From the NCBI GenBank assembly GCA_040767925.1, contig JAXGNN010000001.1:1344921-1408920 (forward strand): a stretch of 64,000 nt of DNA, in the 5' to 3' direction. Position numbers and translations under genes: made by a program. The number at the start of each line of letters is the position of its first letter. Position 1 is the stretch's first letter. The notes under the pieces are model-generated. The model saw only the letters and a list, made by a program, of their open reading frames with translations, ran no database searches and was not told the origin of the DNA. Shown here piece by piece: positions 234-54,182 of the stretch. The stretch comes from Christensenellales bacterium (GTDB taxonomy: Bacteria > Bacillota > Clostridia > Christensenellales > CAG-138).

Positions 234-1973
234 ATGAAAGCAAACCGGATTTTGGCGTCCGCGCTCGCGCTGCTGCTGGTTTTTTCCGCGGCGCCGGCGC
301 GCGCCGCCTCGTATCACACGCAGATACGGGTGCTGCTCTCCGTGGGCGCGAAAAGTTCCCTCGCCTTCACGCCGGTTGGGGAATATTACCTCAAGGAAGC
401 GCCGGAGATCGCGCTCAGCGGCGGGGAGCTCACCGTCTCCGCAATCGGCAGCAGGCCGTCCGTCACCGTGGGCGGAAAAACCGTCACCGCGGCGTCGCTC
501 ACCTTCGTCAGCCGCGATTACGGCGGCAGGGGCGCGTACATCCGCCTCGTCAACAGCGAGCACGGCACCTGCACGTATCTGGGCAACCTGACCTTCGATG
601 TGAAAGCCGGCGCGATCCGCGCCGTCAACACCCTTCCCCTCGAGCAGTATCTCTACGGCGTCGTGCCGCACGAGATGAGCAATTCCTTCCCCATGGACGC
701 GCTCAAGGCGCAGGCCGTCTGCGCGCGCAGCTACGCCATGGCGAAGTGCTCGCGCTATACTTCGCGCGATTACGACATCCGCGACACCTCGAGCGACCAG
801 GTCTACTGCGGCTACGCCAGCAAGAACGTCCGCGCCATCGCCGCGGTGGACGCCACGGCCGGGCAGGTGCTCACCTACGGGGGCGATATCATCGAAGCCT
901 TCTATTCCTCCTCCAACGGCGGGCAGACCGAGCGCACGGCGAACGTCTGGTCGGAGGATTATCCTTATTACATCAATCTGGACGACCCCTACGACCTGGC
1001 GAACCCCTCGAGCATGGAATATGCGGCGTTCATCCCCGCGCGCTTCGCGGAGGAAACCGTCCGCGCGATGGACAGGGACGTGTACGCGGCGCTCCTTCGC
1101 GGCGCGTACGAGGCGGCGGGCGAGGAAGTCGCCCTCCTCTCGACCGTGCGGGTCAAGCCGGGCGCACCCCTGTACGACGCGCCGAGCCGCTGCTATACGC
1201 TCGCGGACGTCACGCTGAACGTGAAGAAACAGGACGGGAGCGCTGGGCAGGTCACAGTGACGCTCCCGCTCGACGCGCTCCTCTACGACGAGGCGGAAAA
1301 CACGCTCGGCGCGTTCGGCGCGCGCACGTACACGCTGCGCATGCGCGGCGCGGAGCGCGCGCGGGTCAACATCGGCGGCGCCTTCTATGACGGCTGGAAC
1401 CTCACCATGCGCCGCTACGGGCACGGGGTGGGATTGAGCCAGCGCGGCGCGCAGCAGCGCGCGCGGATGGGGCAAAGCTACGCGGAGATCCTCGCGTTCT
1501 ACTATGCGGATACGACCCTCTCCACGGCGGGCACGTGGGAGAGCGCGCCGCGCATAACAAGCGAAAAATACAAGGTGAAATCCTCCGGCGTGAGCGGGAT
1601 CAAGCTTGGCACGACCCCCGCGGAGCTGATCGGGCGGCTTACGTGCGAGGGCGCGCTCTCGCTCGTCACCGCGCGGGGGGAAGAGAAGGCCGAGGGCGTC
1701 GCCGCGACGGGCAACTATGTGCGCGTCGCCTATGAAGGGGGCAAATGCTTCTTCGACCTGCCCGTCGTGATCTACGGCGACCTCGACGGGGACGGAAGCA
1801 TCGGCGAGAAGGATATCGCGGCGCTCGCCGGGCATTTGATGCGCGCGAGCCTCCTTTCGGGGGCGTATCTCGCGGCGGCGGACGTCAACCACGACGGCGG
1901 CGCGGACGCGCGGGACCTCGTCGCGCTCATCCGGAGCGTCCGGGGCGACGGAACAATCGCGCAGGAGGGGTAA
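234..1973 (+). CDS. SpoIID/LytB-domain protein with C-terminal dockerin-like module
   Basis: ORF 180..1973. Start moved to ATG 234 (AGGAAGGG 5 nt upstream), giving signal peptide MKANRILASALALLLVFSAAPARA. SpoIID blocks LEQYLYGVVPHEM, ALKAQAVCARSYA, SSDQVYCGY, EAFYSSSNGGQTE. The last ~70 aa hold two dockerin-type Ca-binding segments: DLDGDGSIGEKDIAALAGHLM and DVNHDGGADARDLVALIRSV. Confidence 0.85.
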   Translation: MKANRILASALALLLVFSAAPARAASYHTQIRVLLSVGAKSSLAFTPVGEYYLKEAPEIALSGGELTVSAIGSRPSVTVGGKTVTAASLTFVSRDYGGRGAYIRLVNSEHGTCTYLGNLTFDVKAGAIRAVNTLPLEQYLYGVVPHEMSNSFPMDALKAQAVCARSYAMAKCSRYTSRDYDIRDTSSDQVYCGYASKNVRAIAAVDATAGQVLTYGGDIIEAFYSSSNGGQTERTANVWSEDYPYYINLDDPYDLANPSSMEYAAFIPARFAEETVRAMDRDVYAALLRGAYEAAGEEVALLSTVRVKPGAPLYDAPSRCYTLADVTLNVKKQDGSAGQVTVTLPLDALLYDEAENTLGAFGARTYTLRMRGAERARVNIGGAFYDGWNLTMRRYGHGVGLSQRGAQQRARMGQSYAEILAFYYADTTLSTAGTWESAPRITSEKYKVKSSGVSGIKLGTTPAELIGRLTCEGALSLVTARGEEKAEGVAATGNYVRVAYEGGKCFFDLPVVIYGDLDGDGSIGEKDIAALAGHLMRASLLSGAYLAAADVNHDGGADARDLVALIRSVRGDGTIAQEG

Positions 1974-1978
1974 GGAAT

Positions 1979-3220
1979 ATGGGAAGCAAAAGAGAATTTA
2001 CGCGAAGATCGGCGGCGCTTCTTCTGGCGCTGTGCCTGCTTCTTCTTGGCTCCGCGGCGCTTGCGGATATCGAGGCCGAGGCGGATCAAACGGGCGTGCA
2101 GGCCGGGGACGTCCTCGCCGTCACGCTGACCATCACGGGAAAGAACCTCTCGGTGGCGGAAGGGCTCTTTACCTACGACCCCGCGCTCCTCGCCTTCCAG
2201 GAGAGCGACGGAAGCGCGACGGACGGCTTCTTCACCCTCTACTCCGCCGAGAAGAACGGCTCCTCCACGTTGAGCGCGCGCGTCGTGTTCACGGCGCTCG
2301 CCGCGGGCGAGGCGAAAATCACATTCACGCTCGAGACCCTCCTCGACTACAAGGGCAAGGCGCTCGACACGGGCAGCGCGAGCGTCGCCGTCGCGATCGC
2401 CGCGGCTCCCGCCACACCTTCGCCGCCGCCCGTCGACTACGGCGACCCCGCGCGCAGCGTCAAGGCCGAAAACGTCGCCGGCGCGACGGGCGACATGTAC
2501 GTCTGGCGCAGCATCGAGAACGTGACCATCCCCTCGCGCTACGGCGAAGCGGACGTCGTCTACCGCGGCGAAACCGTGAAGGGCGCCGCCGTCAAGGACT
2601 CGGACGCGCCCACGCTCCTCTACCTCTCCGACGCGGCGGGGAACAGCGCGAGCTATTACATCTACGACGCCGAAAGGGACGCGCTCTACCCCTACCGCAC
2701 GATCTCCTCCGTGAGCAAATCCTACATCCTCCTCGAGCCGGACGGGAGCGTTTCCGCGCCCGAGGGCTTCGCGGAGACGACGTTGGAGCTCGACGGCGGC
2801 GCGGTGCGCGCCTGGGTCAGGGAGGACGCGCAGGGCAGCCTCTACCTGCTCTACGCGCGCAACCCCGACGGGGAGACCGGCTTCTACCTCTACAACCTGG
2901 AGGACGCGTCGCTGCAGCGCTTTGCGGTCTTGCCCGCGCGGCCGGCCGTGACGCCGCCCGCGAGCCCCGCGACCCCCGCGCCCGCGACGGAGCCCGTCCC
3001 GCAGGAAACGGCGTTCGTGAAAGACCCCGCGCCGGGAGAGATCGTCCTCCCCCGGGCGCTGTTCTACGCCGTATGCGGCGCGGCGGCGCTGTTCCTCGGC
3101 CTGTTTGTCGCGGGCATCGTCCTGCGCTCCGCGGAGGACGCGCGGCGCAGGAAACGCGCCGCCGAGCGCCGCAGGGCGCGGGAAAAAGCCGAGGAGGAGA
3201 CCCGGCAGATCAGTTCCTAA
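1979..3220 (+). CDS. Membrane-anchored surface protein with N-terminal cohesin-like module
   Basis: ORF 1745..3220. Start at ATG 1979 (AGGAGGGG overlapping the upstream stop) gives a signal peptide. The N-terminal module is beta-rich (GVQAGDVLAVTLTITGKNLSVAEGLFTYDPALLAF..AKITFTLETLLDYKG) and cohesin-like. Pro/Ala linkers follow, then a C-terminal TM helix ALFYAVCGAAALFLGLFVAGIVL and a charged tail. The CDS is firm; the cohesin call is tentative. Confidence 0.6.
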   Translation: MGSKREFTRRSAALLLALCLLLLGSAALADIEAEADQTGVQAGDVLAVTLTITGKNLSVAEGLFTYDPALLAFQESDGSATDGFFTLYSAEKNGSSTLSARVVFTALAAGEAKITFTLETLLDYKGKALDTGSASVAVAIAAAPATPSPPPVDYGDPARSVKAENVAGATGDMYVWRSIENVTIPSRYGEADVVYRGETVKGAAVKDSDAPTLLYLSDAAGNSASYYIYDAERDALYPYRTISSVSKSYILLEPDGSVSAPEGFAETTLELDGGAVRAWVREDAQGSLYLLYARNPDGETGFYLYNLEDASLQRFAVLPARPAVTPPASPATPAPATEPVPQETAFVKDPAPGEIVLPRALFYAVCGAAALFLGLFVAGIVLRSAEDARRRKRAAERRRAREKAEEETRQISS

Positions 3221-3234
3221 CCGTACCAAATATT

Positions 3235-3260
3235 AAAAACCGGCTGCACGCCGGTTTTTT
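3235..3260. terminator. Bidirectional intrinsic terminator between the cohesin-like gene and the XRE gene
   Basis: AAAAACCGGC-TGCAC-GCCGGTTTTTT: 6-bp GC stem flanked by an A-run and a T-run. Confidence 0.7.
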
Positions 3261-3290
3261 GATCGATCCGTTGGGAGCCGCGCTGGGCGT

Positions 3291-3512
3291 TCATTTCTCC
3301 GGCGGCACAAACTCCAGCAAATCTCCGATTTCGCAATTCAGGACCGTGCACATCCGGGCGAGGACGTCGATATCCAGCCTGCTGATGCTGTTGCTGCAAT
3401 AATGGTTGATTTGGGAGCGCTGCATTTCCGCCCTATGACTCAGTTTGTTCTTGCTGATGCCTTCTCTTTCAATCAGTTCGTTCAGCTTGATTTTGATTGT
3501 TCCGTAATCCAT
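3291..3512 (-). CDS. XRE-family (Cro/CI type) helix-turn-helix regulator, 73 aa
   Basis: Only the last 73 codons of ORF 3291..3794 look real: MDYGTIKIKLNELIEREGISKNKLSHRAEMQRSQINHYCSNSISRLDIDVLARMCTVLNCEIGDLLEF. This is the typical HTH_3 pattern. Codon usage is AT-rich, unlike its neighbours. Confidence 0.85.
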   Translation of the reverse strand: MDYGTIKIKLNELIEREGISKNKLSHRAEMQRSQINHYCSNSISRLDIDVLARMCTVLNCEIGDLLEFVPPEK

Positions 3513-3545
3513 TCGGGGGCTTTCTCCTGCTGATGATCCACAACA

Positions 3546-3575
3546 TTGACATACATAGTATGGACTTAGTAGAAT
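3546..3575 (+). promoter_or_regulatory. Strong sigma-A type promoter for the small Spo0A-C-like gene
   Basis: TTGACA (3546-3551), 18 nt, TAGAAT (3570-3575), inside an AT-rich pocket. Confidence 0.5.
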
Positions 3576-3591
3576 CATTATGTAAGTTCTA

Positions 3592-3606
3592 TTATATCTG
3601 ATATAA
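3592..3606. promoter_or_regulatory. Perfect 7-1-7 palindrome, candidate operator
   Basis: TTATATC-T-GATATAA. It lies downstream of the + promoter. On the minus strand it overlaps a TATAAT that could be the -10 of the XRE gene. Confidence 0.4.
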
Positions 3607-3613
3607 CATCTTA

Positions 3614-3625
3614 CACATGCATGTG
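3614..3625. promoter_or_regulatory. Perfect 12-bp palindrome, second candidate operator
   Basis: CACATGCATGTG, immediately 5' of the GGAGG RBS of the 3639 gene. Confidence 0.3.
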
Positions 3626-3638
3626 AGGAGGGGCGCGA

Positions 3639-3848
3639 ATGGGCACCCGGAGGGCGAAAAAGGCGCTGGAGGAGCTTGCCAGGCAAAAGGGCGTGAGCAT
3701 CGGGGCGATACGCCGCGAAATCGAGCGCGCGATCGCGGAGGCGATGAAGAATCCCGACCCGGAGGCGCGGGCGTTCTGGGCCGCCGCGTCCCATTCAGGG
3801 AAAGCTCCGACGCCCGAGGAATTCATCGCCTATCTCGCGCGCAAATAA
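3639..3848 (+). CDS. Small stand-alone protein resembling the C-terminal end of the Spo0A DNA-binding domain
   Basis: 69 aa with GGAGG 8 nt upstream. GVSIGAIRREIERAIAEAM..GKAPTPEEFIAYLARK parallels the Spo0A segment SRVERAIRHAIEVAW..SKAKPTNSEFIAMVADKL, as recalled from memory. Confidence 0.6.
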   Translation: MGTRRAKKALEELARQKGVSIGAIRREIERAIAEAMKNPDPEARAFWAAASHSGKAPTPEEFIAYLARK

Positions 3849-3850
3849 AA

Positions 3851-3872
3851 ACGGATGCCTCTCGCATCCGTT
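3851..3872 (+). terminator. Hairpin after the Spo0A-C-like gene
   Basis: ACGGATGC-CTCTC-GCATCCGT followed by a weak T tract. Confidence 0.4.
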
Positions 3873-3894
3873 CTGTGCCGGACGGATAAGAACA

Positions 3895-3977
3895 GGGCGG
3901 ATATGGAATCCGCCCCTGCAAAATCCCCGCCGAAGCGGCGTTCTTGATTTTCAATTATCCATTGTCAATTGTCAATT
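3895..3977 (-). repeat. Modular intergenic repeat, full copy (locus 1), abutting the noc stop
   Basis: On the + strand: GGGCGGAT-ATGGA-ATCCGCCC, CTGCAAAATCCC, CGCCG-AAG-CGGCG, TTCTTGATTTTCAATTATCCATTGTCAATTGTCAATT. The last heptamer overlaps the TAA of noc (3976-3978). Confidence 0.9.
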
Positions 3978-4815
3978 ACTTATGTCTCGTCACCCGGATG
4001 CTGATGTCCACGCCGTCCTCGCGGTCGGCCTGCTCGACCTCGACCACCATGCCGGATTCGCGCAGCGCCTTCACCGCGTCGTTGATGGTGTTCATGAAGA
4101 TGCGGTAGTCCCGCACGAGGCGGATGATCATGGGCCGGGGCTTCGCGCCGTCGGCTTTTTCATCGTAAAGGCGGTTGAGCGTCTTTTCGACGTACTGCTC
4201 GGTCTCCTTGACCGAAAGCCCCTTCTGGGCGATTTTGTCCACGAGCTCGAGGCGCGCGCGGTCGTCCGCGAGCTTCAGGAGCGCGCGGGCGTGGCGCTCC
4301 GTGAGGCGCGCGTCCACCATGGCGCTCTTCACGTCGTCCGAAAGCTTCAGAAGGCGCAGCTTGTTGGCGATGGAGGACTGGCTTTTGCCGAGCCGCTCCG
4401 CGAGCTGCTCCTGCGTGAGGTTGTAGGTTTCAAGCAGGGACGCGTAGCACTGCGCCTCCTCGAGGAAGTGCAGGTCCTCGCGCTGCAGGTTCTCGATGAG
4501 CGCCATGACCGCCGAGGTCTCGTCCATGATTTCCTGCTGGATGATGCAGCTCACCGTCTCCATCCCGAGGCTCGTCGCCGCGCGCAGGCGGCGCTCCCCC
4601 GCGACCAGCTCGTACTCGTCGCCCACCCGCCTGACGAGCAAAGGCTGCAGCAGGCCCACCTGCCGGATGGACTGCGCGAGCTCCGCGATGCTCTCCTCGT
4701 CGAAGGTTGTCCGGGGTTGATAGGGGTTCGGGCGGATCTTTGCGACGGGCAGCTCCACGAGCAGCTTGACTGCCTCGGGGCTCCTGTTTTCCTTTAAGAA
4801 GTCGAATACGGGCAT
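3976..4815 (-). CDS. noc: Nucleoid occlusion protein Noc (ParB-family paralogue)
   Basis: ParB N-terminal box LLQPLLVRRVGDEYELVAGERRLRAA, HTH QEQLAERLGKSQSSIANKLRLLKL, and a Noc-type C-terminus RDYRIFMNTINDAVKAL. Sits directly downstream of rsmG as in Bacillus. GGGAGGA RBS. Confidence 0.85.
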   Translation of the reverse strand: MPVFDFLKENRSPEAVKLLVELPVAKIRPNPYQPRTTFDEESIAELAQSIRQVGLLQPLLVRRVGDEYELVAGERRLRAATSLGMETVSCIIQQEIMDETSAVMALIENLQREDLHFLEEAQCYASLLETYNLTQEQLAERLGKSQSSIANKLRLLKLSDDVKSAMVDARLTERHARALLKLADDRARLELVDKIAQKGLSVKETEQYVEKTLNRLYDEKADGAKPRPMIIRLVRDYRIFMNTINDAVKALRESGMVVEVEQADREDGVDISIRVTRHK

Positions 4816-4923
4816 ATGTGCGTCCTCCCTGATTGCGTGTTCTCCAACGGCCGTGATATTCCTGCCCTGCGGCGATATTCGCGCTTTTTCCCGAAAAGAA
4901 GTGATTTTCTTTTTCCGCGGCGC

Positions 4924-5610
4924 TCACAGGGGATTTTTCGCGGCGGCTCCCGCCTTTCGCGGATATTCCTTCGGCGTGGGCGCAAGCTTTTTCGCCTCGA
5001 TCACATGGCGCTCGCCCCACGGAACTTCAAATTTGAGCGTCTGCGCCTCGAGGCGCAGAATCTTCGCGGCGCGCGCGGCCGACGCGAGTTCCTCGTCCGC
5101 CTTCGGCCCTTTGTACATGAGGGAAACGCCGCCTGTTTTCAGGAGGGGCGCCGTCCACTCCATCAGGGCGGACGCTCCCGCGACCGCGCGCGTGAGGGCA
5201 ACGTCGTATTGCCCGCGGTGCGCGGGGTCCCGCCCCGCGTCCTCCGCCCGCGCGTGCACGAGCGCCGCCTGAAGGTTCAATTCCTCCAGCAGGGCCTTTA
5301 GGAAAACGAGGCGCTTATTGAGCGAGTCGAGCAGCGTCATCGAGAGGTCGCCCCGCATGATGAGCAGGGGCACGCCCGGGAAGCCCGCGCCCGTGCCCAC
5401 GTCGATGCAGCGCGCGCCCTCTTTGACGCGCGCCACGGGCAAAAGGCTGTCCGCGAAGTGCTTGGCGACAACTTCCTCCGCGCCCGTGATGGCGGTGAGG
5501 TTCATCCTTTCGTTCCAGGCGGCGAGCAGCGTGAAGTAGCGCGCGAATTTTCCAATTTGCGCCCCGTCCGCCTCCGGTATGTATCGATGGATCAGGCCTT
5601 CTATCTCCAT
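4924..5610 (-). CDS. rsmG: 16S rRNA (guanine527-N7)-methyltransferase RsmG/GidB
   Basis: WNERMNLTAI, KHFADSL, DVGTGAGFPGVPL motifs. Synteny mnmG-rsmG-noc. Confidence 0.93.
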   Translation of the reverse strand: MEIEGLIHRYIPEADGAQIGKFARYFTLLAAWNERMNLTAITGAEEVVAKHFADSLLPVARVKEGARCIDVGTGAGFPGVPLLIMRGDLSMTLLDSLNKRLVFLKALLEELNLQAALVHARAEDAGRDPAHRGQYDVALTRAVAGASALMEWTAPLLKTGGVSLMYKGPKADEELASAARAAKILRLEAQTLKFEVPWGERHVIEAKKLAPTPKEYPRKAGAAAKNPL

Positions 5611-5668
5611 TTCGTCAATTCCGCATTTCCTATATTGTTTTTCGGGGAAGGGACGCCGGCGGTTTCGC

Positions 5669-5689
5669 GGGCGGATATGGAATCCGCCC
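5669..5689 (-). repeat. Solo hairpin module of the repeat family (locus 2)
   Basis: GGGCGGAT-ATGGA-ATCCGCCC. Confidence 0.85.
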
Positions 5690-5841
5690 TGCTGTCCCCG
5701 ACAAGGCGGAGAGAGGCGTCCTTAAGGGTTCCGGGAACGGTCCCACCCTTTCCCCTTCCTTCATCGCCCCATGCAGCGTTCTGTACGGCGCGCCCACATC
5801 GCCCTCCTGCCCGCGGAACCGTCCCCGGGCGCGGATTCCCT

Positions 5842-5955
5842 CCCGCGGCGGCGTTCCCCGATTGTCAATTGTCAATTCTCAATTGTCAATTTCCCCTTCC
5901 CGCCCGCGGCGGCGTTCCCCGATTGTCAATTGTCAATTCTCAATTGTCATTTTCC
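5842..5955 (-). repeat. Two tandem 61-bp copies of the heptamer module (subfamily 2), overlapping the mnmG 3' end
   Basis: CCGCGGCGGCGTTCCCCGATTGTCAATTGTCAATTCTCAATTGTCA occurs twice (period 61: 5860 and 5921). Confidence 0.9.
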
Positions 5956-7819
5956 TCAAGTAAATCGTCAGCACCGCGATGTCCGAAGGCGACACGCCCG
6001 AGATGCGCCCCGCGCGGCCGAGGCTCTCGGGCTTCCTTGCCGCGAGCTTCTGGCGCGCCTCAAGGCGCAAGCCTTCCATCGCCATGTAGTCGAGGTCCGG
6101 GGGGAGGGGGGTGTCCTCCAGCTCGCGAAAGCGGCCGACGAGCGCCTTCTCCTTCTCGATGTAGCCCTCGTAGCGCGCGTCGAGCGTGACGGCCTCCGCC
6201 GCCTCGCGGCCGATGTTCGGCAGAAGATCCGGATAGAGCGCGAGGAGGTCCGTGTAGCCGACGCCGCGCCTTCGAAGCAGATCGAACAGCCTGACGCCCG
6301 AGGCGGGCGCGGACTCGCCCCGCGCCTCGAGCAGCCGCCGCAGCGCCTCCCCGGGCGCGACGGACGCGCCGAGCGCGGCCTTCGCCCGGGCGGCCTCCTC
6401 CCGCTTTCGCATCAGGCGGGAATAGCGCTCGTCGGAAACAAGCCCCGTCCGCCTGGAAAGCTCGGTCAGCCGCTCGTCCGCGTTGTCCTGCCGGAGCAGC
6501 AGCCGGTATTCCGCGCGGGAGGTCATCATCCGGTAGGGTTCGTTGGTGCCTTTGCCCGTGAGGTCGTCGCACAGCACGCCGATGTACGCGTCCGCGCGCG
6601 AGAGGAGAAGGGGCGGCTCGCCCCGAAGGTACAGGGCGGCGTTGATCCCCGCGTAAAGCCCCTGCGCCGCGGCCTCCTCATAGCCGGAGCTGCCGTTGAT
6701 CTGCCCCGCGAAGTAAAGGCCCTCTATCTCGCGGGAACGAAGCGCAGCGTCGAGCGCCGTGGGGTCGATGCAGTCGTACTCGATGGCGTAGCCGTAGCGC
6801 GTGACCTGGCAACGTTCAAGCCCTGGTATCGTATGGAGCATGTCCCTCTGCACGTCGGCGGGGAGCGAGGTGCTCATGCCCTGCACGTATTTCTCGTCGG
6901 TCGAGCGCCCTTCCGGCTCGATGAAGAGCTGGTGGCGCTCCTTGTCGGCGAAACGGGTGATCTTATCCTCGATGGAGGGGCAGTAGCGCGTGCCCGTCGC
7001 GCGGATGAGGCCGGAGTACATGGCGCTGCGCGCGATATTCGCGCGGATGACCGCGTGGGTCGCCTCGTTCGTATAGGTGAGGTAGCACGGGACCTGCTCC
7101 CGTTCAAGCTCCCCCGTGAGGAAGGAGAAGCGCGGCTGCGGCTCGTCCCCGAACTGCGGCTCCATTTTTGCATAATCGAGCGTGCGGCCGAGCACGCGCG
7201 CAGGCGTGCCCGTCTTGAAGCGGCGAAGCGCGAAGCCGATCTTTGCGAGCGCCGCGGAAAGCCCTTCCGCGCGCATCAGGCCGGAGGGCCCGCTCTCCCA
7301 TACGCAATCGCCGATGAGCACGCGGCTCTTTAAATACACGCCCGTCGCGACGACGACGGCGCGGCAGGGGATCCTCTCCCCCGCGCTCTTCATGCCGCCC
7401 GAGAGGCGTATGCCGATGACGCGGCCGTTTTCCACGTCGATATGGGCGCACTCGCCCTGCATCAGGGTCAGGCGCTCCTCGGTTTCGAGCGCGCGCTTCA
7501 TGCGCGCGTGATATTCCCGCTTGTCGATCTGCGCGCGAAGGGAGTGCACGGCGGGGCCCTTGCCCGTGTTGAGCATGCGCACCTGAAGGCAGGTGTCGTC
7601 CGCGGCGAGGCCCATCTCGCCGCCGAGCGCGTCGATTTCGCGCACGAGGTGCCCCTTCGACGTGCCGCCCACCGAGGGGTTGCACGCCATGAGGGCGACC
7701 GCGTCGAGGTTGAGCGTCAGGCACAGCGCAGTAAGCCCCATGCGCGATGCGGCAAGCGCGGCCTCAAGCCCTGCGTGCCCTGCTCCCAGTATCGCGATGT
7801 CGTATCCCGTTTCCGCCAC
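5933..7819 (-). CDS. mnmG: tRNA uridine-5-carboxymethylaminomethyl modification enzyme MnmG/GidA
   Basis: GTG start with GGAGGG RBS. FAD motif YDIAILGAGHAGLEAA; CNPSVGG, GQINGSSGYEEAAAQG. The last 5 codons (MTIEN) and the TGA lie inside the repeat. Confidence 0.95.
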   Translation of the reverse strand: MAETGYDIAILGAGHAGLEAALAASRMGLTALCLTLNLDAVALMACNPSVGGTSKGHLVREIDALGGEMGLAADDTCLQVRMLNTGKGPAVHSLRAQIDKREYHARMKRALETEERLTLMQGECAHIDVENGRVIGIRLSGGMKSAGERIPCRAVVVATGVYLKSRVLIGDCVWESGPSGLMRAEGLSAALAKIGFALRRFKTGTPARVLGRTLDYAKMEPQFGDEPQPRFSFLTGELEREQVPCYLTYTNEATHAVIRANIARSAMYSGLIRATGTRYCPSIEDKITRFADKERHQLFIEPEGRSTDEKYVQGMSTSLPADVQRDMLHTIPGLERCQVTRYGYAIEYDCIDPTALDAALRSREIEGLYFAGQINGSSGYEEAAAQGLYAGINAALYLRGEPPLLLSRADAYIGVLCDDLTGKGTNEPYRMMTSRAEYRLLLRQDNADERLTELSRRTGLVSDERYSRLMRKREEAARAKAALGASVAPGEALRRLLEARGESAPASGVRLFDLLRRRGVGYTDLLALYPDLLPNIGREAAEAVTLDARYEGYIEKEKALVGRFRELEDTPLPPDLDYMAMEGLRLEARQKLAARKPESLGRAGRISGVSPSDIAVLTIYLRKMTIEN

Positions 7820-8022
7820 AGCCTCAATCCCTCCGATGAACGCAAGGTCGATTATACCAAAACCGGAAGCATCTTGAAAGGGGGTATTTCCCGTTAGGAG
7901 AATTATTTCCCAAAGAACGGATTTCTACCCTCCCGCGCGCGGAACTTGCGTCAAGATTGTGGAAAATTTCCCCAGAAACAGGCATATTTCGCGCGGATCG
8001 CGCCGATTTGCGCAGGACCGCT

Positions 8023-8051
8023 TTACAGGAGGGCCATGCGTCTGTATAATG
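8023..8051 (+). promoter_or_regulatory. Candidate sigma-A promoter of the DMT transporter gene
   Basis: TTTACA (8023-8028), 17 nt, TATAAT (8046-8051). Confidence 0.45.
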
Positions 8052-8114
8052 AGTTGCTGTGAACCGCGCAGAACGCGCGCGCTTCTAGAAATTCTTAGAC
8101 AGGCGGAAAAGAAT

Positions 8115-9011
8115 ATGTGGTTTCCATTGTCGCTTGCCGCTCTCATCTGCTGGAGCGGGTCCGATCTTTTTGCCAAAATCGGCTGCCAGGACCCCAAGGA
8201 AAAACACAGCCACCTGAAGATGGTCATCGCCGTGGGCGCCGTGATGGGCCTTCACGCGGCGTATGAGATGCTCTTCGGCGGCGTCGTGATGACGGGCGAG
8301 GTCTTCTTGAAGTATCTGCCCGTGTCGATGCTCTACATCCTCTCGATGGCGCTCGGGTACCTCGGCCTTCGCTACATCGAGCTCTCGATCTCCTCCCCCA
8401 TCTGCAACACCTCGGGCGCGGTGGTGGCGCTCATCTACCTCCTCTCGGGCGAGCCGGTCGAAACGCCGCAGCTGATCGCGATCGGCCTCATCGGCGTGGG
8501 CGTACTGATGCTCGGCGTCGTGCAGATGACGGAGGACGAGCAGTTGCGCCTCGCCCGGCAGGAAGCCTCGAACATGAAGTATTCGAAGAGCCTCCTCGCG
8601 CTTTTCATCCCGGTCGTCTACTGCCTGCTCGACGCGGCGGGCACCTACGCGGACAGCCTCGTGCTCGAAACCCTCGACGAGAACGCCGCCAACGTCGCCT
8701 ATGAGCTGACGTTCCTCCTGTGCGGCGCCGTCAGCTTCCTCTATGTGAAGCTCGTCAAAAAAGAGAAGTTCACACTGAAGCTGGAGGCGCCCAAATACGT
8801 CGGCGCCGTGTTTGAAACGGCGGGCCAGTTCGCCTATATCTTCGCCCTTGGCGCGAACGCCATGTTCGCGGCGCCCGTGATCTCCTGCTACTGCGCGCTC
8901 TCGGTCGTGTGGAGCCGCGTGTTCCTCAAGGAAAAGCTCGGCTGGAAGCACTACGTCTGCATCGCGGGCATCATCGCCGGCATCGCCATTTTAGGCGCGT
9001 ACGACGCTTAG
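8115..9011 (+). CDS. EamA/DMT-family membrane transporter
   Basis: Start moved to ATG 8115 (MWFPLSLAALICWSGSDLFAKIG). About 10 predicted hydrophobic helices in a two-EamA-repeat layout. Confidence 0.7.
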   Translation: MWFPLSLAALICWSGSDLFAKIGCQDPKEKHSHLKMVIAVGAVMGLHAAYEMLFGGVVMTGEVFLKYLPVSMLYILSMALGYLGLRYIELSISSPICNTSGAVVALIYLLSGEPVETPQLIAIGLIGVGVLMLGVVQMTEDEQLRLARQEASNMKYSKSLLALFIPVVYCLLDAAGTYADSLVLETLDENAANVAYELTFLLCGAVSFLYVKLVKKEKFTLKLEAPKYVGAVFETAGQFAYIFALGANAMFAAPVISCYCALSVVWSRVFLKEKLGWKHYVCIAGIIAGIAILGAYDA

Positions 9012-10273
9012 AGCCGCCTTTCGCCCTCGCTCCACACGGCCGTCACCGCGCGGGGATCGTCCGCGTAGACGAGCCGCTCGAGCCGTTCCGCGCTCGAAAG
9101 CGTCCTCGAGGGGGGGAGCATCGTGTCGGAGAGGACGACGGCGTGGAGCCTGTCTCCCGCGGCGAAGCCCGGGCCCGCGCCGAAGTAGCGCGCGCCCGCG
9201 GAGGTCGCGAGGTAAAACGCCTCGGCGACGGTGAGGAATTTCTCCTCCTCCCGTTTGCCGGAGTAATAGTAGCGCAGCTTCGAGACGCGGATCGCCTCCG
9301 CCATGCAGTGGAACAGCGAAAGCTTCGCGCCGCCCGCGATGTCCGACCCGAGCGCGACGTTGATGCCCTCGCTGAGCATCAGCCGCACCGGCGCGACGCC
9401 GGAATAGATGTTCGTATTGGAATCCGGGCAGTGTGCGACCCACACGCCCGTTTTTTTGATGCCCTCGCGCTCGCGCGCGTCGCTGTGGACGCAGTGCGCC
9501 ATGACGGTCTTTTCGCGCCAGAGGCCGCGCTTATCGTAGCTGTCCCAATACTGCGGGCATTCGGGGCAGAGCCGCCTGACCCATTCGATCTCCACGTCGT
9601 TCTCCGAAAGGTGGGATTGGATGGGCACGCCGTATTCGTCGGCGATTTTCGAGAGGCCCTCCATGAGCGCGTCCGAGCACGAGGGCGTGAAGCGCGGCGT
9701 GATGATGGGCGCGAGGTTTTTGAACCTTCCGCGGCTCTCCTCGATGAAACGGCGCGTTTCAAGAAGCGACCCCTCCGTCGTCTCCAGGAGCTCGGGCGGG
9801 GTGTTCCTGTCCATGTTGACCTTGCCGACAAAGCCGGAAACCCCCGCGCGCTCCAGCTCCTCCATGAGGATGAGCGCGCTCTCCCGATGGATGCTCGCGT
9901 AGACGCACGCGCGCGTCGTACCGAGGCGGATGAGTTCGTCCGCGAGCGCGGAATAGACCTTCCTCGCGAAAACCGGATCGGCGAACAGCGCCTCGGTCTT
10001 GAACGTGTAGGCGTTGAGCCACTCGATGAGCGGCAGGTCCATGCCGAGGCCCAGCATCGCGTACTGCGGCGCGTGCAGGTGCAGGTCCGAAAACGCGGGG
10101 ATGACGAGCATGCCCGAGAAGTCGTGCGTCCGCTCGGGGACGCAGCCCTCGGGCAGGCTATGATAAATTCCCTCGATCGCGCCGTCCCGAAGGAGCAGGC
10201 AGCCGTCCTCGACGGCCTCCAATTCCCCCATGCGCGGCGCGTGGACGAAGGTGGACTTGATCGCTTCTAACAT
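9008..10273 (-). CDS. guaD: Guanine deaminase (amidohydrolase superfamily)
   Basis: Start at ATG 10273 (GAAAGGAGGG RBS). The longer ORF upstream is repeat-derived. Motifs FSDLHLHAPQY, PRFTPSCS, QSHLSEN, AHCVH, GSDIAGG. Its stop overlaps the convergent DMT gene stop by 3 bp (9008-9010 vs 9009-9011). Confidence 0.8.
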   Translation of the reverse strand: MLEAIKSTFVHAPRMGELEAVEDGCLLLRDGAIEGIYHSLPEGCVPERTHDFSGMLVIPAFSDLHLHAPQYAMLGLGMDLPLIEWLNAYTFKTEALFADPVFARKVYSALADELIRLGTTRACVYASIHRESALILMEELERAGVSGFVGKVNMDRNTPPELLETTEGSLLETRRFIEESRGRFKNLAPIITPRFTPSCSDALMEGLSKIADEYGVPIQSHLSENDVEIEWVRRLCPECPQYWDSYDKRGLWREKTVMAHCVHSDAREREGIKKTGVWVAHCPDSNTNIYSGVAPVRLMLSEGINVALGSDIAGGAKLSLFHCMAEAIRVSKLRYYYSGKREEEKFLTVAEAFYLATSAGARYFGAGPGFAAGDRLHAVVLSDTMLPPSRTLSSAERLERLVYADDPRAVTAVWSEGERRL

Positions 10274-14436: not shown

Positions 14437-14518
14437 TTCGATATAGGCGCTTTAGAAGCCTTTCGACAGGATTATGCCCGGCGCTTCGACAATGTATGCT
14501 CTCAGGACAAGCTATAAT
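14437..14518 (+). promoter_or_regulatory. Spo0A-dependent spoIIE promoter region
   Basis: 0A boxes in reverse orientation: TTCGATA 14437-14443, TTCGACA 14462-14468, TTCGACA 14485-14491 (complement of TGTCGAA). The -35-like TCGACA (14486-14491) is followed by 21 nt and then a perfect TATAAT (14513-14518). Confidence 0.6.
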
Positions 14519-14551
14519 GAATCCACTTATTGTGGAAGGGGACAGTTCGCC

Positions 14552-16045
14552 GTGCAGCTCTTCGCGTCAGGCAGCAAATCGCATCTCTCCGCCGCCGCCC
14601 TGCGCGCGGCGCCCAAGAAGGCCATGCGCATCGGGGCGGGCTTCATCTGCGGCGCGGCGGGCATGTTCGGGTTTTCGCCCCTGGCGCTGCCCGCCGTCGC
14701 CGCGGCGTGGCTGTGCCTGGACGACGCCTGCTATGTGCTCGTCGGCGCCCTAATGGGCACGCTCGTGTCGGAAAGCTTCGCATCCTTTTCGGCATGCGCG
14801 CTCTTTGGCGGGGCCGAGCTGCTGCTGGCGCTCTGGCGCGCGCCGCGGGGAAGGAACGCCGCGCTCCTGCGGGCGTTCCTCGTGATGGCCGCGGCGCAGG
14901 CGGCGCTGCTCCCCTTTATATATCCGCTCTGGGGGAACGAGTTTTTCGTGGGCATGGGCTGCCTTTTCATATCGCCTGCGGCGAGCGCCGTCATTGCGCG
15001 CGGCGTGCGCGCGCTCGCGGGCTATATGGACGGCAGGCGCCTCGCGCGCGCGGACGCTCTCACCCTGTTGATTCTCCTGTTGCTGCTCGTGGGGGCGCTG
15101 CTGCTCGCTCCCCCCGCCGCCGCGGCTGCCGGACTCGTCGCCATGCTCCTTGCGGCCTTCGCCGTGTGCCGGGAGCGGGCGGGCGCGGCCGGCGCGTTGA
15201 GAAAGACCCGCCGCAACCTCATCGACGCCGCAGGCGTCGCAAAGGGCATCGCCCAGTATATCGGAGGGAGCGCCGGCGGGGATTTACTGGCGCGAAGCCA
15301 GCTCGAGGGCATGGGGGGCGCCATGGAAAAGCTCGCCGCAGGGAGCGCGGCATTGATGCGGTGCCGCATCCGCCTGCGTACGGGGACGGCGGGCGTGCCC
15401 ATGCAAGGCAGCGCCCTCACGGGGGACGCGATCGCCATGCGCCGCGCGGGGGATACGGCGATATTCATCCTGAGCGACGGCATGGGGACCGGGGAGGCGG
15501 CGCACCGCGAGAGCGCGATGGCGGCGGCGCTCCTCGGGGACATGCTCTCGGTCGGGTACGACGAGGACGCGGCGCAGCGGGGCGTGAACGATCTGATGCT
15601 CCTCTCCGGGGAGGAGACCTACGCCACGCTCGACGCCGCGCTCATCGACCTGATGACGGGGGAAATGCGCATGCTCAAGTTCGGCGCGCCCCCCTCCTAC
15701 ATCCTGCGCGAGGGCCGCGTGCGCGCCGTGGAAAGCCCTGCGCCGCCCGCAGGCATCCTCGAAGGGGCGCGGGCGGGCGCGGGCAGCGCCCAGCTCAAGC
15801 GGGGCGACGCGCTCGTGATGATGACGGACGGCCTCATGGACGCGCTGGGCATGGAGCTTTTCGCCTCCATCGTGGAGCTCGTGGGCGGCGCCAACACGCC
15901 CGAGGACGCGGCCGAGGCGCTCGTCGCCCGCGCGCTCGAGCGCGGCTACAACGACGACATGAGCGTCCTCGTGGCGCGCGTCGAGGGTGAGCCGCTCGCG
16001 ATCCGGCGGGAAAGGATTGAGGAAGCCGCCGAAGCGCCCGCATAA
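14552..16045 (+). CDS. spoIIE: Stage II sporulation protein E (membrane PP2C phosphatase), compact form
   Basis: Start placed at in-frame GTG 14552 (GGAAGGGGA 9 nt upstream), because ATG 14474 lies inside the promoter. Polytopic N-terminal region. C-terminal PP2C domain ILSDGMGTGEAAHRES .. MMTDGLMD .. YNDDMSVLVARV. Confidence 0.8.
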   Translation: MQLFASGSKSHLSAAALRAAPKKAMRIGAGFICGAAGMFGFSPLALPAVAAAWLCLDDACYVLVGALMGTLVSESFASFSACALFGGAELLLALWRAPRGRNAALLRAFLVMAAAQAALLPFIYPLWGNEFFVGMGCLFISPAASAVIARGVRALAGYMDGRRLARADALTLLILLLLLVGALLLAPPAAAAAGLVAMLLAAFAVCRERAGAAGALRKTRRNLIDAAGVAKGIAQYIGGSAGGDLLARSQLEGMGGAMEKLAAGSAALMRCRIRLRTGTAGVPMQGSALTGDAIAMRRAGDTAIFILSDGMGTGEAAHRESAMAAALLGDMLSVGYDEDAAQRGVNDLMLLSGEETYATLDAALIDLMTGEMRMLKFGAPPSYILREGRVRAVESPAPPAGILEGARAGAGSAQLKRGDALVMMTDGLMDALGMELFASIVELVGGANTPEDAAEALVARALERGYNDDMSVLVARVEGEPLAIRRERIEEAAEAPA

Positions 16046-23548: not shown

Positions 23549-23622
23549 GCGGGTGTAGCTCAGTGGCAGAGCTTCGGCTTCCCAAGCCGACTATGTGGGT
23601 TCGATTCCCATCACCCGCTCCA
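23549..23622 (+). tRNA. tRNA-Gly (anticodon CCC)
   Basis: Manual cloverleaf: acceptor GCGGGTG/CACCCGC, D arm GCTC-AGTGGCA-GAGC, anticodon arm TCGGC-TTCCCAA-GCCGA, T arm GTGGG-TTCGATT-CCCAT, discriminator U73, encoded CCA. Confidence 0.88.
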
Positions 23623-23682
23623 GCACGATCCCGTGTCATGCGGGAAACATACAGCGACAGATTTTTAGGAGGATGTCAAACG

Positions 23683-24894
<1,212 letters not shown>

Positions 24895-27357: not shown

Positions 27358-28425
27358 TCATTCCGCGTTCGATAATTTCTCACTCTGCTCCTTGAGGATA
27401 AGCGCCTCGATGACCTCGTCCATGTCCCCGTCGAGAAAGGCCTCGAGCTTGTAGAGCGTGACGCCCACGCGGTGGTCGCTCACGCGCCCCTGCGGGAAGT
27501 TGTAGGTGCGGATGCGCTCGCTGCGGTCTCCGCTGCCCACCTGCGCGCGGCGCGCGCCCGCCTCGGCCTCCGCCGCGCGGGCCTGATAGAGCTCGAGAAG
27601 GCGGCTTTTGAGCACGCGCATGGCCTTCTCCCTGTTCTTGTGCTGGCTCCGCTCGTCCTGGCACTGCACGATGAGGCCCGTAGGGAGGTGCGTGATGCGT
27701 ATGGCGCTCTCGGTTTTGTTGACGTGCTGGCCGCCCGCGCCGCCGCTGCGGTAGGTGTCGATCGAAAGCTCGTCGGGGTTGATGTCCACCTCGACGTCCT
27801 CGGCCTCCGGCAGCACCGCGACCGTGGCCGCGCTCGTATGGATGCGCCCCTGGGACTCCGTCTCCGGCACGCGCTGCACGCGGTGAACGCCGCTCTCGTA
27901 TTTCATGCGGGAGTAGGCGCCGCGCCCCTGCAGGCTCAGCACGACCTCCTTCACGCCGCCGATTTCGGTGTAGTTCTCGTACATCAATTCGCTTTTGTAG
28001 CCGTGGCGCTCCGCGTAGCGCTGGTACATGCGAAGCAGGTCCGCGCCGAAGAGGGAGGCTTCCTCGCCGCCCGTGCCCGCGCGGATTTCGATCATCACGT
28101 CCCTCTCGTCGTTGGGGTCCTTCGGGAGGAGCATCAGGCGGAGCTTTTCCACAAGCGCCTTCTCCTTCCCCTGGAGCGCGTCGAGCTCCTCGCGCGCGAG
28201 TTCCCGCAGTTCGGGCTCGAGCTTGCCCTCGAGCAGGGCGCGGCACTCCCCGATGTCACGCGTCAGCGCCGCGTATTCGTCGTACGCCCCAGCGATATCT
28301 ATAAGCCCCGCGTGCTCGCGCGCGAACGCGCGGAACCTCTGCTGGTCCGCGATCACCTCGCTTTGGGACATGAGCCGCGCGAGCTCGTCGCTGCGCGCCT
28401 TAATCGATTGGAGTTTCTCCAGCAT
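27358..28425 (-). CDS. prfA: Peptide chain release factor 1
   Basis: [16 protein letters not shown] (GGQ motif), PETES region. Confidence 0.97.
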
Positions 28426-29722
28426 ATTCGGATGCGTCTCCCCGTTTGATCAGCGCAACGCCTTCCCCCGCGCAGATTTTCACGACGTGCGAGAAGGCTT
28501 TCTTGGATGCGCCCGCCTCGTCCCCGAAGCAGGGTTTCACCCTGTGCACTCCGTCACGATAGCACAACAGGGGCAGATACGCAAGCTCTTCGCATTTGAC
28601 CTCGCCCGAGGGGGATTTGACGAGCGTGAGGCGCGCGAACACGCCGTAATTGACGTTGGGCTGCGCCATGTTGGAGATGAAGTTGCCCAGCGAGTAGGCG
28701 ACGGGCACCGCCACGGGTTTTCCGTCCCGCTCGCCCGCCCGCCATTCCATGGGCTGCGCGACGTGCGGGTGCGCGCCGATGATGGCGTCCGCGCCGATTT
28801 CGATGAGCGCGTCCGCCGCCTTCCGCTGCGCCGCGCTCTCGGCGTTGCTGTGCTCCGCGCCCCAGTGGACGATGGCGACGACGAACTCCGCGCCCGCCTC
28901 CCTGCACGCGGCGATCTGCGCGGCGAGCAGGTCCGTGTCCGAGAGCATGGCGATCGCGTAGGCCTTCTCCTCTTTCGACAGGGAGGGCACGCCGCTGTTG
29001 AGGAAGCCCGCCGCCGCGACGAAGCCCACCTTGATGCCGTTGATCGCGGCGACGCGCGGGGTCAGGGCGTCCGCCGCGTCCGTATAGGTGCCCACCTGCA
29101 GCATGCCCGCCTCGCGGAGGCGAAGCGCCGTGCGGTAGAGCCCTTCGGCGCCCTTGTCCATGCTGTGGTTGTTCGCCGTGGAGAGCAGATCGAAGCCCGC
29201 CTCAAAAAGGTCTCGCGCGAGCTCGTCCGGCGCGTTGAAGCGCTGGAAGGGCGCCTTGGGCGTGGGGTTCTCCTCCGTCGCGGGCGGGGGCGTCTGCCGG
29301 GGCAGGGAATAGCCCGCGTCTTCCCCCGCGAGCGTGCACTCGAAGTTGCCGCAGAGGAAGTCCACCGAGGAAAAAACCTCCTCCATTTCGGCGAAGCTTC
29401 GCGAAAAATCGTAGCCGTCCCCGGTTTTCGCGCCCGCGATCTGCAAGCTCATAATTAAAATGTCCCCTACGAAACCGAGCGTGGCGGTCTGCACGGCGGG
29501 CGTGCTTTCCGCCGTGGGCGCCGGAAAAGGCGTCGCGGCGGGTGCGCTCGCGGGGGTCTCCTCGGGCGTGCTCGCCGCCGTCGCCGCGGGCGTCGCCGCT
29601 TTCGTCGGGATGGGGGTGATGTCGATGCCGGGCGGCGTGCCGCGCGGCGCGGAACAGGCGGAGGCGAAGATGCAGATGCAGCAAAACAGAAGGGGCAGCG
29701 CCCATACGAAAACGCGCTTCAT
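28400..29722 (-). CDS. CapA/PGA_cap-family metallophosphoesterase-like lipoprotein
   Basis: Start at ATG 29722 (ATGA overlap with the prmC stop). Signal/lipobox FASACS, Pro/Thr/Ala linker, [25 protein letters not shown]. Confidence 0.8.
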
Positions 29723-30540
29723 CGGTATGCCGTCACCACCCTCTCGATCCCGTTGAGGTCGCGCGCGATGGCTGTCGCGCAGAACATCGCCGCGACCGCC
29801 CGCGCCTGGCCGAAGCCGACCTCCATCAACAGCGCGCCGCCGGGGGCGATATGGTTCATCGCGTCCCTCGCGAGGACGCGGTAGAAATCCAAACCGTCCT
29901 CCCCGCCGTAGAGCGCGTTTTCCGGCTCGAAGGTCAATTCCTTCTGGAGGGAGCGCATATCCTCCTTTGAGAGATACGGCGGGTTGCAGACGACGAGGTC
30001 GTACCGCCCGCGGATGTTTGAAAACATGTCCGTCAACAGGAATTCCGCCTGAACGCCGTTTTTTTTCGCGTTCTCCCGCGCGAGCGAGAGCGCCGCCGCG
30101 TCGCAGTCGGCGAGCGTCACGCCGACGCCCGCGAGCTTCGCGAGCGCTATGCCGACGCAGCCCGTGCCGCAGCACAAATCGAGGCAGGCGCGGTACGCCT
30201 TTTTTTCGATGAGCCGGAGGGCCTCCTCGCAGAGCGTTTCGGTATCCTGCCGCGGAATGAGCGCGCGCGCGTCCGTTTGAAAGGGCAGGCCCATGAACTC
30301 CCATTCGCCCAGCACATATTGCAGCGGCTTCCCGCTGAGCCGCTCGGCCGTGAGGCGCGCGAGGGCGTCCCCCTGCCCCTGCGTCAGTTCCTTTTCGCGG
30401 TTCTGAGCGAGCGTTTGATGGGGGATACCCGCCGCGCGCGCGACGATAAGCCCCGCCTCGAAGCGGGCGTCGTCCGGCGCGATTTCTCTTAGCGTTTCAG
30501 CCGTTTTCGTTACGGCGCAACCGATAGTCAGTCGATTCAT
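29719..30540 (-). CDS. prmC: Release-factor glutamine N5-methyltransferase PrmC/HemK
   Basis: DLCCGTGCVGIAL, VCNPPY. Confidence 0.92.
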   Translation of the reverse strand: MNRLTIGCAVTKTAETLREIAPDDARFEAGLIVARAAGIPHQTLAQNREKELTQGQGDALARLTAERLSGKPLQYVLGEWEFMGLPFQTDARALIPRQDTETLCEEALRLIEKKAYRACLDLCCGTGCVGIALAKLAGVGVTLADCDAAALSLARENAKKNGVQAEFLLTDMFSNIRGRYDLVVCNPPYLSKEDMRSLQKELTFEPENALYGGEDGLDFYRVLARDAMNHIAPGGALLMEVGFGQARAVAAMFCATAIARDLNGIERVVTAYR

Positions 30541-54041: not shown

Positions 54042-54061
54042 AAGGGCGAACGGAATACCGC

Positions 54062-54144
54062 CCGCTGGGGGAGCCGACGCGCATGCGTTCGTGCTGAGAG
54101 ATACCCTTGGAACCTGTCCGGGTAATGCCGACGAAGGGAAGCGG
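54062..54144 (+). promoter_or_regulatory. TPP (THI-box) riboswitch aptamer
   Basis: CCGCT-GGGGAGC..GCTGAGAGATACCCTTGGAACCTGTCCGGGTAATGCCGACGAAGGGA-AGCGG. Matches the conserved CUGAGA, ACCUGAUCYGGRUAAUGCC and GGGA blocks, with a P1 closing helix. Confidence 0.88.
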
Positions 54145-54182
54145 AGGACAAATACATCAAACCGCCTTCGGCGTTTGACTGT

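Follow-up and report, generated by a model that had tools for sequence, protein, structure and literature searches.

Near the start of a 64,000-nt stretch of the genome of a Christensenellales bacterium (NCBI GenBank assembly GCA_040767925.1, contig JAXGNN010000001.1, positions 1,344,921 to 1,408,920; hereafter the window, meaning this entire 64-kb stretch wherever gene searches are reported), two adjacent genes encode a predicted enzyme and its putative membrane anchor. Gene 1 (234–1973, ATG at 234 and TAA at 1971–1973; 579 aa) specifies a secreted protein of the SpoIID/LytB family, predicted to cleave peptidoglycan glycan strands, that ends in an X module and a dockerin (X-dockerin). Gene 2 (1979–3220; 413 aa) specifies a type I membrane protein with, in order, a signal peptide, a cohesin, a mid-domain, a Pro-rich linker, a transmembrane helix and a basic tail. 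Both genes, and all of the features assigned to them below, lie on the plus strand. The original prediction for this locus, made from the sequence, had described a dockerin-tagged SpoIID homologue beside a cohesin-like, membrane-anchored partner. That description was confirmed, and those of its suggested checks that were run turned out in its favour, with the reservations given below.

The SpoIID/LytB character of gene 1 was borne out by its matches to Pfam SpoIID (2e-29, residues 126–215) and to the NCBIfam SpoIID/LytB domain model TIGR02669 (7e-61; 206.5 against a cut-off of 83.3), with PF08486 also passed, while the protein lies below the cut-off of the equivalog model for stage II sporulation protein D (NCBIfam TIGR02870; 132.6 vs 234.75 bits). 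Among solved structures in the Protein Data Bank (PDB), SpoIID of Bacillus anthracis (4rwr, 4.3e-32) and of Clostridioides difficile (5i1t) were aligned to the catalytic domain (609–1544, residues 126–437) in two stretches around an insert of ~120 residues (1020–1388, residues 263–385). The catalytic Glu147 (672–674), within the motif VVPHEMS, aligns to the Glu of ‘VVASEM’ in 4rwr and is invariant across 45 orthologues, and more than 120 orthologue clusters possess the combined SpoIID and Dockerin architecture. Characterised SpoIID/LytB-family members are lytic transglycosylases that cut peptidoglycan glycan strands, and the product of gene 1 is probably a glycan-cleaving enzyme as well. Its N-terminus (MKANR-ILASALALLLVFSAA-PARA|AS) was read as a typical AxA signal peptide without a lipobox (234–305; MKANRILASALALLLVFSAAPARA|AS), the AxA motif is kept among orthologues, and export through a cleavable signal peptide appears likely.

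C-terminal to the catalytic domain is a small beta module, here termed X (1545–1763, residues 438–510), which has no Pfam match and abuts the dockerin without a linker. The dockerin (1764–1943, residues 511–570) comprises two segments, each consisting of a calcium loop and a helix, and both of the segments quoted in the original prediction, DLDGDGSIGEKD (from residue 515) and DVNHDGGADARD (from residue 549), are present in the translation, with Asp or Asn at loop positions 1, 3, 5, and 12. These calcium-loop residues are conserved in the locus alignment, and the domain passes Pfam Dockerin_1 (PF00404; 1.9e-9, residues 514–569) at 38.0 bits against a cut-off of 22.9 and matches dockerins in the PDB at 1e-8 to 1e-2. 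Further, residues 451–578, which span the X module and the dockerin, are homologous to the C-termini of distant proteins that combine a dockerin with a glycoside hydrolase family 73 (GH73) domain (BLASTP 2e-14 and 4e-16). The best solved match to the dockerin (PDB 8x39/8x3a, 1.4e-8) is a non-cellulosomal, 151-residue chain deposited as ‘Serine protease’, for which a literature search turned up no paper; the dockerin from one of the distant loci described below (L055) matches a second region of the same chain (residues 73–131), which may represent another non-cellulosomal, possibly tandem, dockerin.

Gene 2 has 133 homologues, each of ~400 aa, some of which are named ‘cohesin domain-containing protein’ by NCBI. 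An AlphaFold2 (AF2) model built on an alignment of 36 family members has a mean predicted local distance difference test (pLDDT) score of 86, and the N-terminal domain (2066–2398, residues ~30–140) is modelled as a beta-sandwich with a pLDDT of ~95–98. When this domain was compared with the PDB using Foldseek, ranks 1–10 were all cohesins (probability 1.0), as were most of the lower ranks. The top matches were from Clostridium perfringens (2vo8 and 2jh2, target-normalised template modelling scores of 0.69 and 0.71, respectively) and Archaeoglobus fulgidus (2xdh, 0.63), with type I and type II cellulosomal cohesins also among the matches. Because of these structural matches, and because 35 of the 36 family members match Pfam Cohesin at E<0.1 (best 8.1e-6; a few pass in the precomputed annotation), the N-terminal module of gene 2 is called a cohesin by its modelled fold, divergent by sequence. 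The cohesin-like N-terminus of the original prediction was thus upheld at the level of fold (pLDDT >95, all best PDB matches cohesins) and not by the protein’s own Pfam score, which is sub-threshold.

Following the cohesin is an all-beta mid-domain (2414–2944, residues 146–322), in which conservation within gene 2 is highest, above that of the cohesin. In the model of the whole protein this second beta domain covers residues ~150–318 at a pLDDT above 90. Modelled alone it reached a pLDDT of 94 and a predicted template modelling score of 0.86, and it had no significant structural match in the PDB (best E 0.2) or BFVD and no Pfam match; it might act as a spacer, bind the wall or regulate the enzyme. 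A disordered Pro/Thr-rich linker (residues 323–357; low pLDDT at residues 319–352) precedes the transmembrane helix and basic cytoplasmic tail (3050–3217; helix, residues ~358–382; tail, residues 383–413), which AF2 renders as a single helix (residues 359–412) spanning both. This arrangement of linker, transmembrane helix and basic tail is kept across the family. The prediction that gene 2 is secreted and held by a single C-terminal transmembrane segment agrees with its AxA signal peptide, its hydrophobic stretch at residues 360–382 and its basic tail, and although the cohesin and the anchor had been correctly placed, the mid-domain and the wider family to which it belongs had been overlooked. 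Lipoprotein anchoring was considered for the products of both genes and ruled out, as a conserved lipobox Cys occurs in neither.

The two genes are separated by an intergenic gap of 5 nt, so that the start of gene 2, previously placed ‘6 nt later’, is correct in the sense that its ATG begins 6 nt beyond the final base of the gene 1 stop, the gap itself being one nucleotide shorter. The ribosome-binding site of gene 2, read from the sequence as AGGAGGGG (1963–1970), had been placed over the gene 1 stop codon; it occupies the last three codons of gene 1 and ends just before the stop. Close spacing is general: of the 49 loci for which a gene 2 start was called, 48 have a gap between -26 and +19 nt, often as an ATGA overlap. 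A sigma-70-type promoter-like element (TTGACG–17 nt–TATGAT; 125–153) lies ~80 nt 5′ of the gene 1 ATG, and the motif TTGACN-(16–18)-TANNNT occurs 5′ of the gene 1 orthologue in 32 of 44 loci compared to 21 of 1080 control windows (2%), which suggests that the element acts as a promoter. Downstream, 15 nt after the gene 2 stop, is a hairpin resembling a bidirectional intrinsic terminator (3235–3260; AAAAACCGGC-TGCAC-GCCGGTTTTTT, then a T-run), beyond which the next gene, encoding a helix-turn-helix (HTH) protein, is convergent on the minus strand. Because of the conserved promoter-like element, the 3′ hairpin and the convergent next gene, the two genes are taken to form a closed bicistronic unit, the promoter of which is of housekeeping type.

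Additional conserved blocks were observed around the promoter-like element when the region was compared with 11 other loci (L002–L008, L023, L030, L037, and L038). In close relatives, a block of the form TTGAAAAC(A/T)TG..ATGAAC (88–115 in the window) is conserved ~15–35 nt 5′ of the -35 element, in place of which distant relatives possess GTTCA-type repeats with ~11-nt spacing upstream of gene 1, and a block ATGTC(G/A)AA (158–170) is conserved ~10–15 nt 3′ of the -10 element. It is a matter of speculation that these are binding sites for a regulator, such as a response regulator of the OmpR/WalR type.

Using one genome per species (GTDB), the scan for relatives of gene 2 in these species-representative genomes identified 53 loci, all in metagenome-assembled genomes labelled as Clostridia, Christensenellaceae, Feifaniaceae, Pelethousia and similar. 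Two of the loci start at a contig end inside gene 2 and are uninformative; in all of the remaining 51, a SpoIID-dockerin gene was directly upstream of the cohesin gene, far more than chance would give. When open reading frames (ORFs) were clustered across the loci, gene 1 and gene 2 were the only conserved families, the next family occurring in 10 loci, such that the co-occurrence across related genomes combines tight coupling with variable flanks. The neighbourhood of Noc, RsmG and MnmG that adjoins the operon in the window was common only to the four closest relatives, and this origin-region synteny was rejected as a part of the system for that reason. Within the window, no dockerin, cohesin or mid-domain occurs other than those of gene 1 and gene 2. 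The description of the two genes as a self-contained, non-cellulosomal pair is consistent with this solitary occurrence, with the peptidoglycan cargo and with the strict co-inheritance.

A profile search with the mid-domain against 1.84 billion cluster representatives recovered 2008 representative proteins at E ≤ 1e-3 (807 at ≤ 1e-10), mostly 350–780 aa in length, with 150–300 residues preceding the domain; in the proteins sampled, these residues form a cohesin, often with a Cadherin-like sandwich after it. The genomic context was explored for ten distant anchors (L054, L055, L056, L057, L058, L059, L061, L062, L063, and L065), and nine of them have directly upstream, on the same strand, a gene for an enzyme that cleaves the glycan of peptidoglycan, the enzyme being SpoIID-type in three (L056, L059, and L062) and a GH73 glucosaminidase in six (L054, L055, L057, L058, L061, and L065). 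The GH73 identity is based on matches to AtlE in the PDB (2.9e-13) and to SagB/Atl, to NCBIfam SagB (3e-20), and, by phmmer, among the proteins themselves (1e-45 to 1e-59). In seven of the nine upstream enzymes, the C-terminus is an X-dockerin with homology to the one in gene 1 (hidden Markov model (HMM) matches, 1e-14 to 1e-27). The association between enzyme and anchor extends beyond the close relatives.

Several of these distant loci have features of their own. In L056 (ena:ERZ27301263 k141_2111741, 327–9156), a gene encoding SpoIID, SH3 and dockerin domains is followed by two consecutive genes for proteins with a cohesin and mid-domain (393 and 472 aa), an enlarged form of the module, and, further downstream, by an LCP-family (LytR_cpsA_psr) wall-polymer ligase with Big_3 and a 529-aa protein with a weak cohesin match, an arrangement that looks like a small wall-assembly gene cluster. 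A gene for the germination protease gpr (Peptidase_A25) is located downstream of the module in L062 (3819–4742), and SpoIIR is encoded in L065 (1615–2187) 200 nt upstream of the GH73-dockerin gene; from these neighbours, at least some carriers of the modules are spore-formers. One giant protein from the profile search (P0283, 2869 aa) has 17 matches to the final beta-hairpin of the mid-domain (profile positions ~145–173), which suggests that a repeat unit, arranged elsewhere in long arrays, makes up part of the mid-domain.

The interpretation that best accommodates these observations, and which is considered reasonably probable, is that the bicistronic operon tethers a secreted glycan-cutting enzyme to a membrane anchor through predicted cohesin-dockerin docking, for membrane-proximal cleavage during growth. 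The gene 1 enzyme would be exported bearing its C-terminal X module and dockerin, and gene 2 would present, from the outside in, a cohesin tip, the beta mid-domain, a flexible Pro-rich stalk, the transmembrane helix and a short basic cytoplasmic tail. Calcium-dependent binding between cohesin and dockerin would dock the soluble enzyme onto the anchor and restrict glycan cleavage to one layer, fixed by its distance from the membrane’s outer face, as opposed to the whole wall. The same cassette occurs on two unrelated glycan-cutting domains, each encoded before a cohesin-bearing membrane protein, which is what a plug-and-socket tether predicts. The physical contact between the two modules is inferred, as are the timing of expression and the physiological role of the pair. 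Because the GH73 sister pairs carry the same X-dockerin, the shared requirement seems to be glycan-strand cleavage close to the membrane in ordinary growth, for example the trimming or release of nascent strands or septal remodelling, and the enzyme-anchor pair may then be a functional analogue of SagB-SpdC or MltG. A role in growth is favoured over a role in engulfment because of the sigma-70-type promoter, the failed SpoIID equivalog test and the GH73 variants. Christensenellales dockerin genes assigned to K06381 (spoIID) are transcribed in the cockroach gut (PMC10266427).

A number of observations weigh against tethering as described. Gene 2 itself is below the Pfam Cohesin (PF00963) threshold (E 0.057, 14.1 vs 24.1 bits), and covariation between dockerin and cohesin was not enriched over other pairs of regions, in an analysis (mutual information with average product correction, 47 pairs) that has little power. 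Characterised SpoIID enzymes need denuded glycan that is supplied by an amidase partner (PMC6934232), and there is no amidase gene in the operon of gene 1 and gene 2. Among the distant loci, the L057 enzyme has three PG_binding_1 domains and no dockerin, and its anchor is without a detectable cohesin, so both halves of the putative plug are absent there; the L058 enzyme has seven SH3 domains and no dockerin, though its anchor keeps a cohesin-like domain; and the L063 anchor has no enzyme gene upstream. From the dockerin-less pairs of L057 and L058 it follows that docking may not be the only or an essential link. The sporulation genes adjoining related modules in some genomes (gpr in L062 and spoIIR in L065) also sit uneasily with a role in ordinary growth.

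Some of these points lend themselves to a second account, in which the pair cooperates without any cohesin-dockerin binding, the N-terminal module of gene 2 being a cohesin-like beta-sandwich used for something else, the coupling being through the mid-domain, for example as an activator, an inhibitor or a wall-binding ruler, and the dockerin binding some other target or serving as a calcium-stabilised tail. Conservation is higher in the mid-domain than in the cohesin, and the mid-domain is common to all 2008 relatives, L057 and L058 keep the adjacency of enzyme and anchor in spite of lacking the dockerin, and the absent covariation signal (subject to the little power of 47 pairs) and the sub-threshold cohesin HMM score would be expected. 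However, this account leaves unexplained why the X-dockerin is kept on unrelated SpoIID and GH73 enzymes before cohesin anchors in 7 of the 10 distant and 51 close loci, the dockerin and the cohesin are both missing in L057, and the top structural matches of the gene 2 N-terminal module are all dockerin-binding cohesins, so that it is thought unlikely. A similarly low probability is assigned to a sporulation version, in which gene 1 is the organism’s engulfment SpoIID, gene 2 localises it to the mother-cell or septal membrane and docking stands in for both the N-terminal transmembrane anchor of canonical SpoIID and the localisation pathways missing from Clostridia. The solved structures nearest to gene 1 are those of SpoIID and its catalytic Glu is retained, modules adjoin gpr and spoIIR in two of the distant loci, and Clostridia are without the pathways known to localise SpoIID, SpoIIM, and SpoIIP (Galperin et al., PMC3533761). 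Set against this are the score of gene 1 in the SpoIID equivalog model, the conserved sigma-70-type promoter upstream of it, the partnering of the anchor, in five distant modules and in L065, with an enzyme that is not of the engulfment kind, a GH73 glucosaminidase, and the ~35 annotated genes of the window, which include no sporulation-specific gene and neither spoIIP nor spoIIM nearby. Cultured Christensenellales, to which the named relatives belong, are described as non-spore-forming, and this was also counted against the sporulation version. Of the ‘cell-wall or sporulation enzyme’ first proposed, the sporulation part is disfavoured (failed equivalog cut-off, sigma-70-type promoter, GH73 sister modules).

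Least credible, and given very little weight, is a cellulosome-like system for polysaccharide degradation in which the dockerin plugs into a scaffoldin encoded elsewhere in the genome. The dockerin of gene 1 is of the Pfam type I family, and Christensenellales dockerins together with one cohesin have been listed as ‘cellulosome components’ (PMC10266427), but the cargo is a peptidoglycan enzyme and not a carbohydrate-active enzyme directed at the plant cell wall, the partner has one cohesin, a transmembrane anchor and no carbohydrate-binding module, the 64 kb contain no other dockerin or cohesin, and the pair is self-contained and co-inherited.

Both components of the proposed tether, namely non-cellulosomal cohesin-dockerin pairs and membrane partners of wall hydrolases, are already known. 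Like the pair described here, the glycoside hydrolase and toxin pairs of C. perfringens (2vo8, 2jh2, and 2w1n) and the A. fulgidus cohesin 2xdh are instances of cohesin and dockerin outside plant-cell-wall degradation; those pairs link secreted enzymes together, whereas here a single cohesin is borne on a transmembrane-anchored protein, the cargo acts on the cell’s own wall and the two genes form a fixed operon. The anchoring of cellulosomes by type II cohesins and X-dockerins (the CipA X-dockerin with SdbA or OlpB; 2b59, 5m0y, and 3l8q) likewise has an X module that abuts the dockerin and a cohesin on a surface anchor. Cellulosome anchors are attached to the wall through S-layer homology modules or by sortase, have several cohesins and hold a scaffoldin, unlike gene 2, which is single-pass with one cohesin and an unrelated conserved domain, and the gene 1 dockerin matches Pfam type I. 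The SpoIID proteins of Bacillus subtilis, B. anthracis and C. difficile, part of the engulfment DMP (SpoIID, SpoIIM, and SpoIIP) machinery (4rwr and 5i1t), share a homologous catalytic domain whose Glu is conserved in gene 1, which differs in possessing an extra N-terminal beta domain, the ~120-residue insert, the X module and the dockerin, in having what looks like an AxA signal peptide and not an N-terminal membrane anchor, and in its sigma-70-like promoter, with SpoIIP and SpoIIM missing from the vicinity.

The nearest functional precedent is SagB-SpdC of Staphylococcus aureus, in which a membrane protein scaffolds a glucosaminidase to cut nascent strands (bioRxiv 10.1101/2020.05.21.109470), and it is offered as an analogy of mechanism only, not of family membership. 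As there, and in LytH-ActH and MltG, a dedicated membrane protein would keep a hydrolase that cleaves glycan strands at the membrane and work with it. In the sister modules, the GH73 enzymes are related by sequence to SagB and AtlE, while gene 1 is itself SpoIID-type; gene 2 is without homology to SpdC (an 8-transmembrane, CAAX-protease-like protein), and SagB has a transmembrane helix of its own where an extracellular plug is proposed here. Literature searches returned no paper in which a membrane cohesin is paired with SpoIID, GH73 or any other peptidoglycan hydrolase, and no account of the operon of gene 1 and gene 2 or of the mid-domain family. Only the dockerin on K06381 (spoIID) had been noted previously, in single-cell genomes of Christensenellales, where it was labelled a cellulosome component (PMC10266427).

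It is only partly understood how Gram-positive bacteria keep enzymes that cut the wall within the right layer of its thickness, and how they detach new glycan strands from the membrane; the few solutions known (SagB-SpdC, LytH-ActH, and MltG) came to light organism by organism. If the tethering interpretation is correct, a co-inherited enzyme-anchor operon with a cohesin-dockerin plug would be a new modular solution across many uncultured gut and digester Clostridia, and cohesin and dockerin would have a housekeeping use on the cell’s own wall, correcting how ‘cellulosome components’ are counted in metagenome surveys such as PMC10266427. A bolder extension, held more tentatively and thought somewhat less likely to be right than wrong, is that the gene 2 family as a whole (at least 2000 clusters at 50% identity) consists of clostridial anchors, each with an extracytoplasmic domain for which solved structures offer no match, that recruit interchangeable SpoIID-type or GH73 enzymes, mostly via X-dockerin and cohesin, to form a membrane-proximal ‘glycan cutter’ by which nascent strands are released or sized, and would amount to a Firmicute-wide counterpart of SagB-SpdC or MltG made from cellulosome parts. 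Structural and functional studies would have a well-defined target in the mid-domain, which is modelled with confidence and matched by neither a solved structure nor a Pfam family.

Other genes of the window were also annotated. Between the operon and noc is the convergent gene for a 71-aa Cro/C1-type HTH protein (3291–3506, minus strand; HTH_26, 3e-16), and a 69-aa ORF (3639–3848, plus strand) has a sub-threshold likeness to the Spo0A C-terminal domain (E 7.7e-5, 23.1 vs 25 bits), with a strong sigma-70-like match (TTGACA-18-TAGAAT, 3546–3575) located 5′ of it. The ParB-like gene adjoining the operon passes the NCBIfam Noc model TIGR04285 (325.7 vs 315), and noc (3976–4815), rsmG (4924–5610), and mnmG (5933–7819), all on the minus strand, have noc after rsmG and mnmG in an origin-proximal order. 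There is no parA/parB after noc, and the cohesin-dockerin operon converges on noc instead. A 523-aa protein (14474–16045, plus strand) has a PP2C phosphatase of the SpoIIE Pfam family in its C-terminal 200 residues (2.3e-26), though its score falls far short of the SpoIIE equivalog cut-off, its N-terminal 300 residues have no assignment, and it does not count as evidence of sporulation. No rRNA was found in the 64-kb window; a tRNA-Gly(CCC) gene (23549–23622, plus strand) is immediately upstream of tuf (EF-Tu, ~23665–24894), and a thiamine pyrophosphate riboswitch (54057–54156, plus strand; 57.2 bits, above the gathering threshold) is upstream of a gene at 54227–54892. On the minus strand (27358–30540), a 438-aa PGA_cap (CapA-like) gene (28400–29716, 3.2e-60) lies between prmC and prfA, with prmC upstream of prfA, the reverse of the usual prfA-prmC order.

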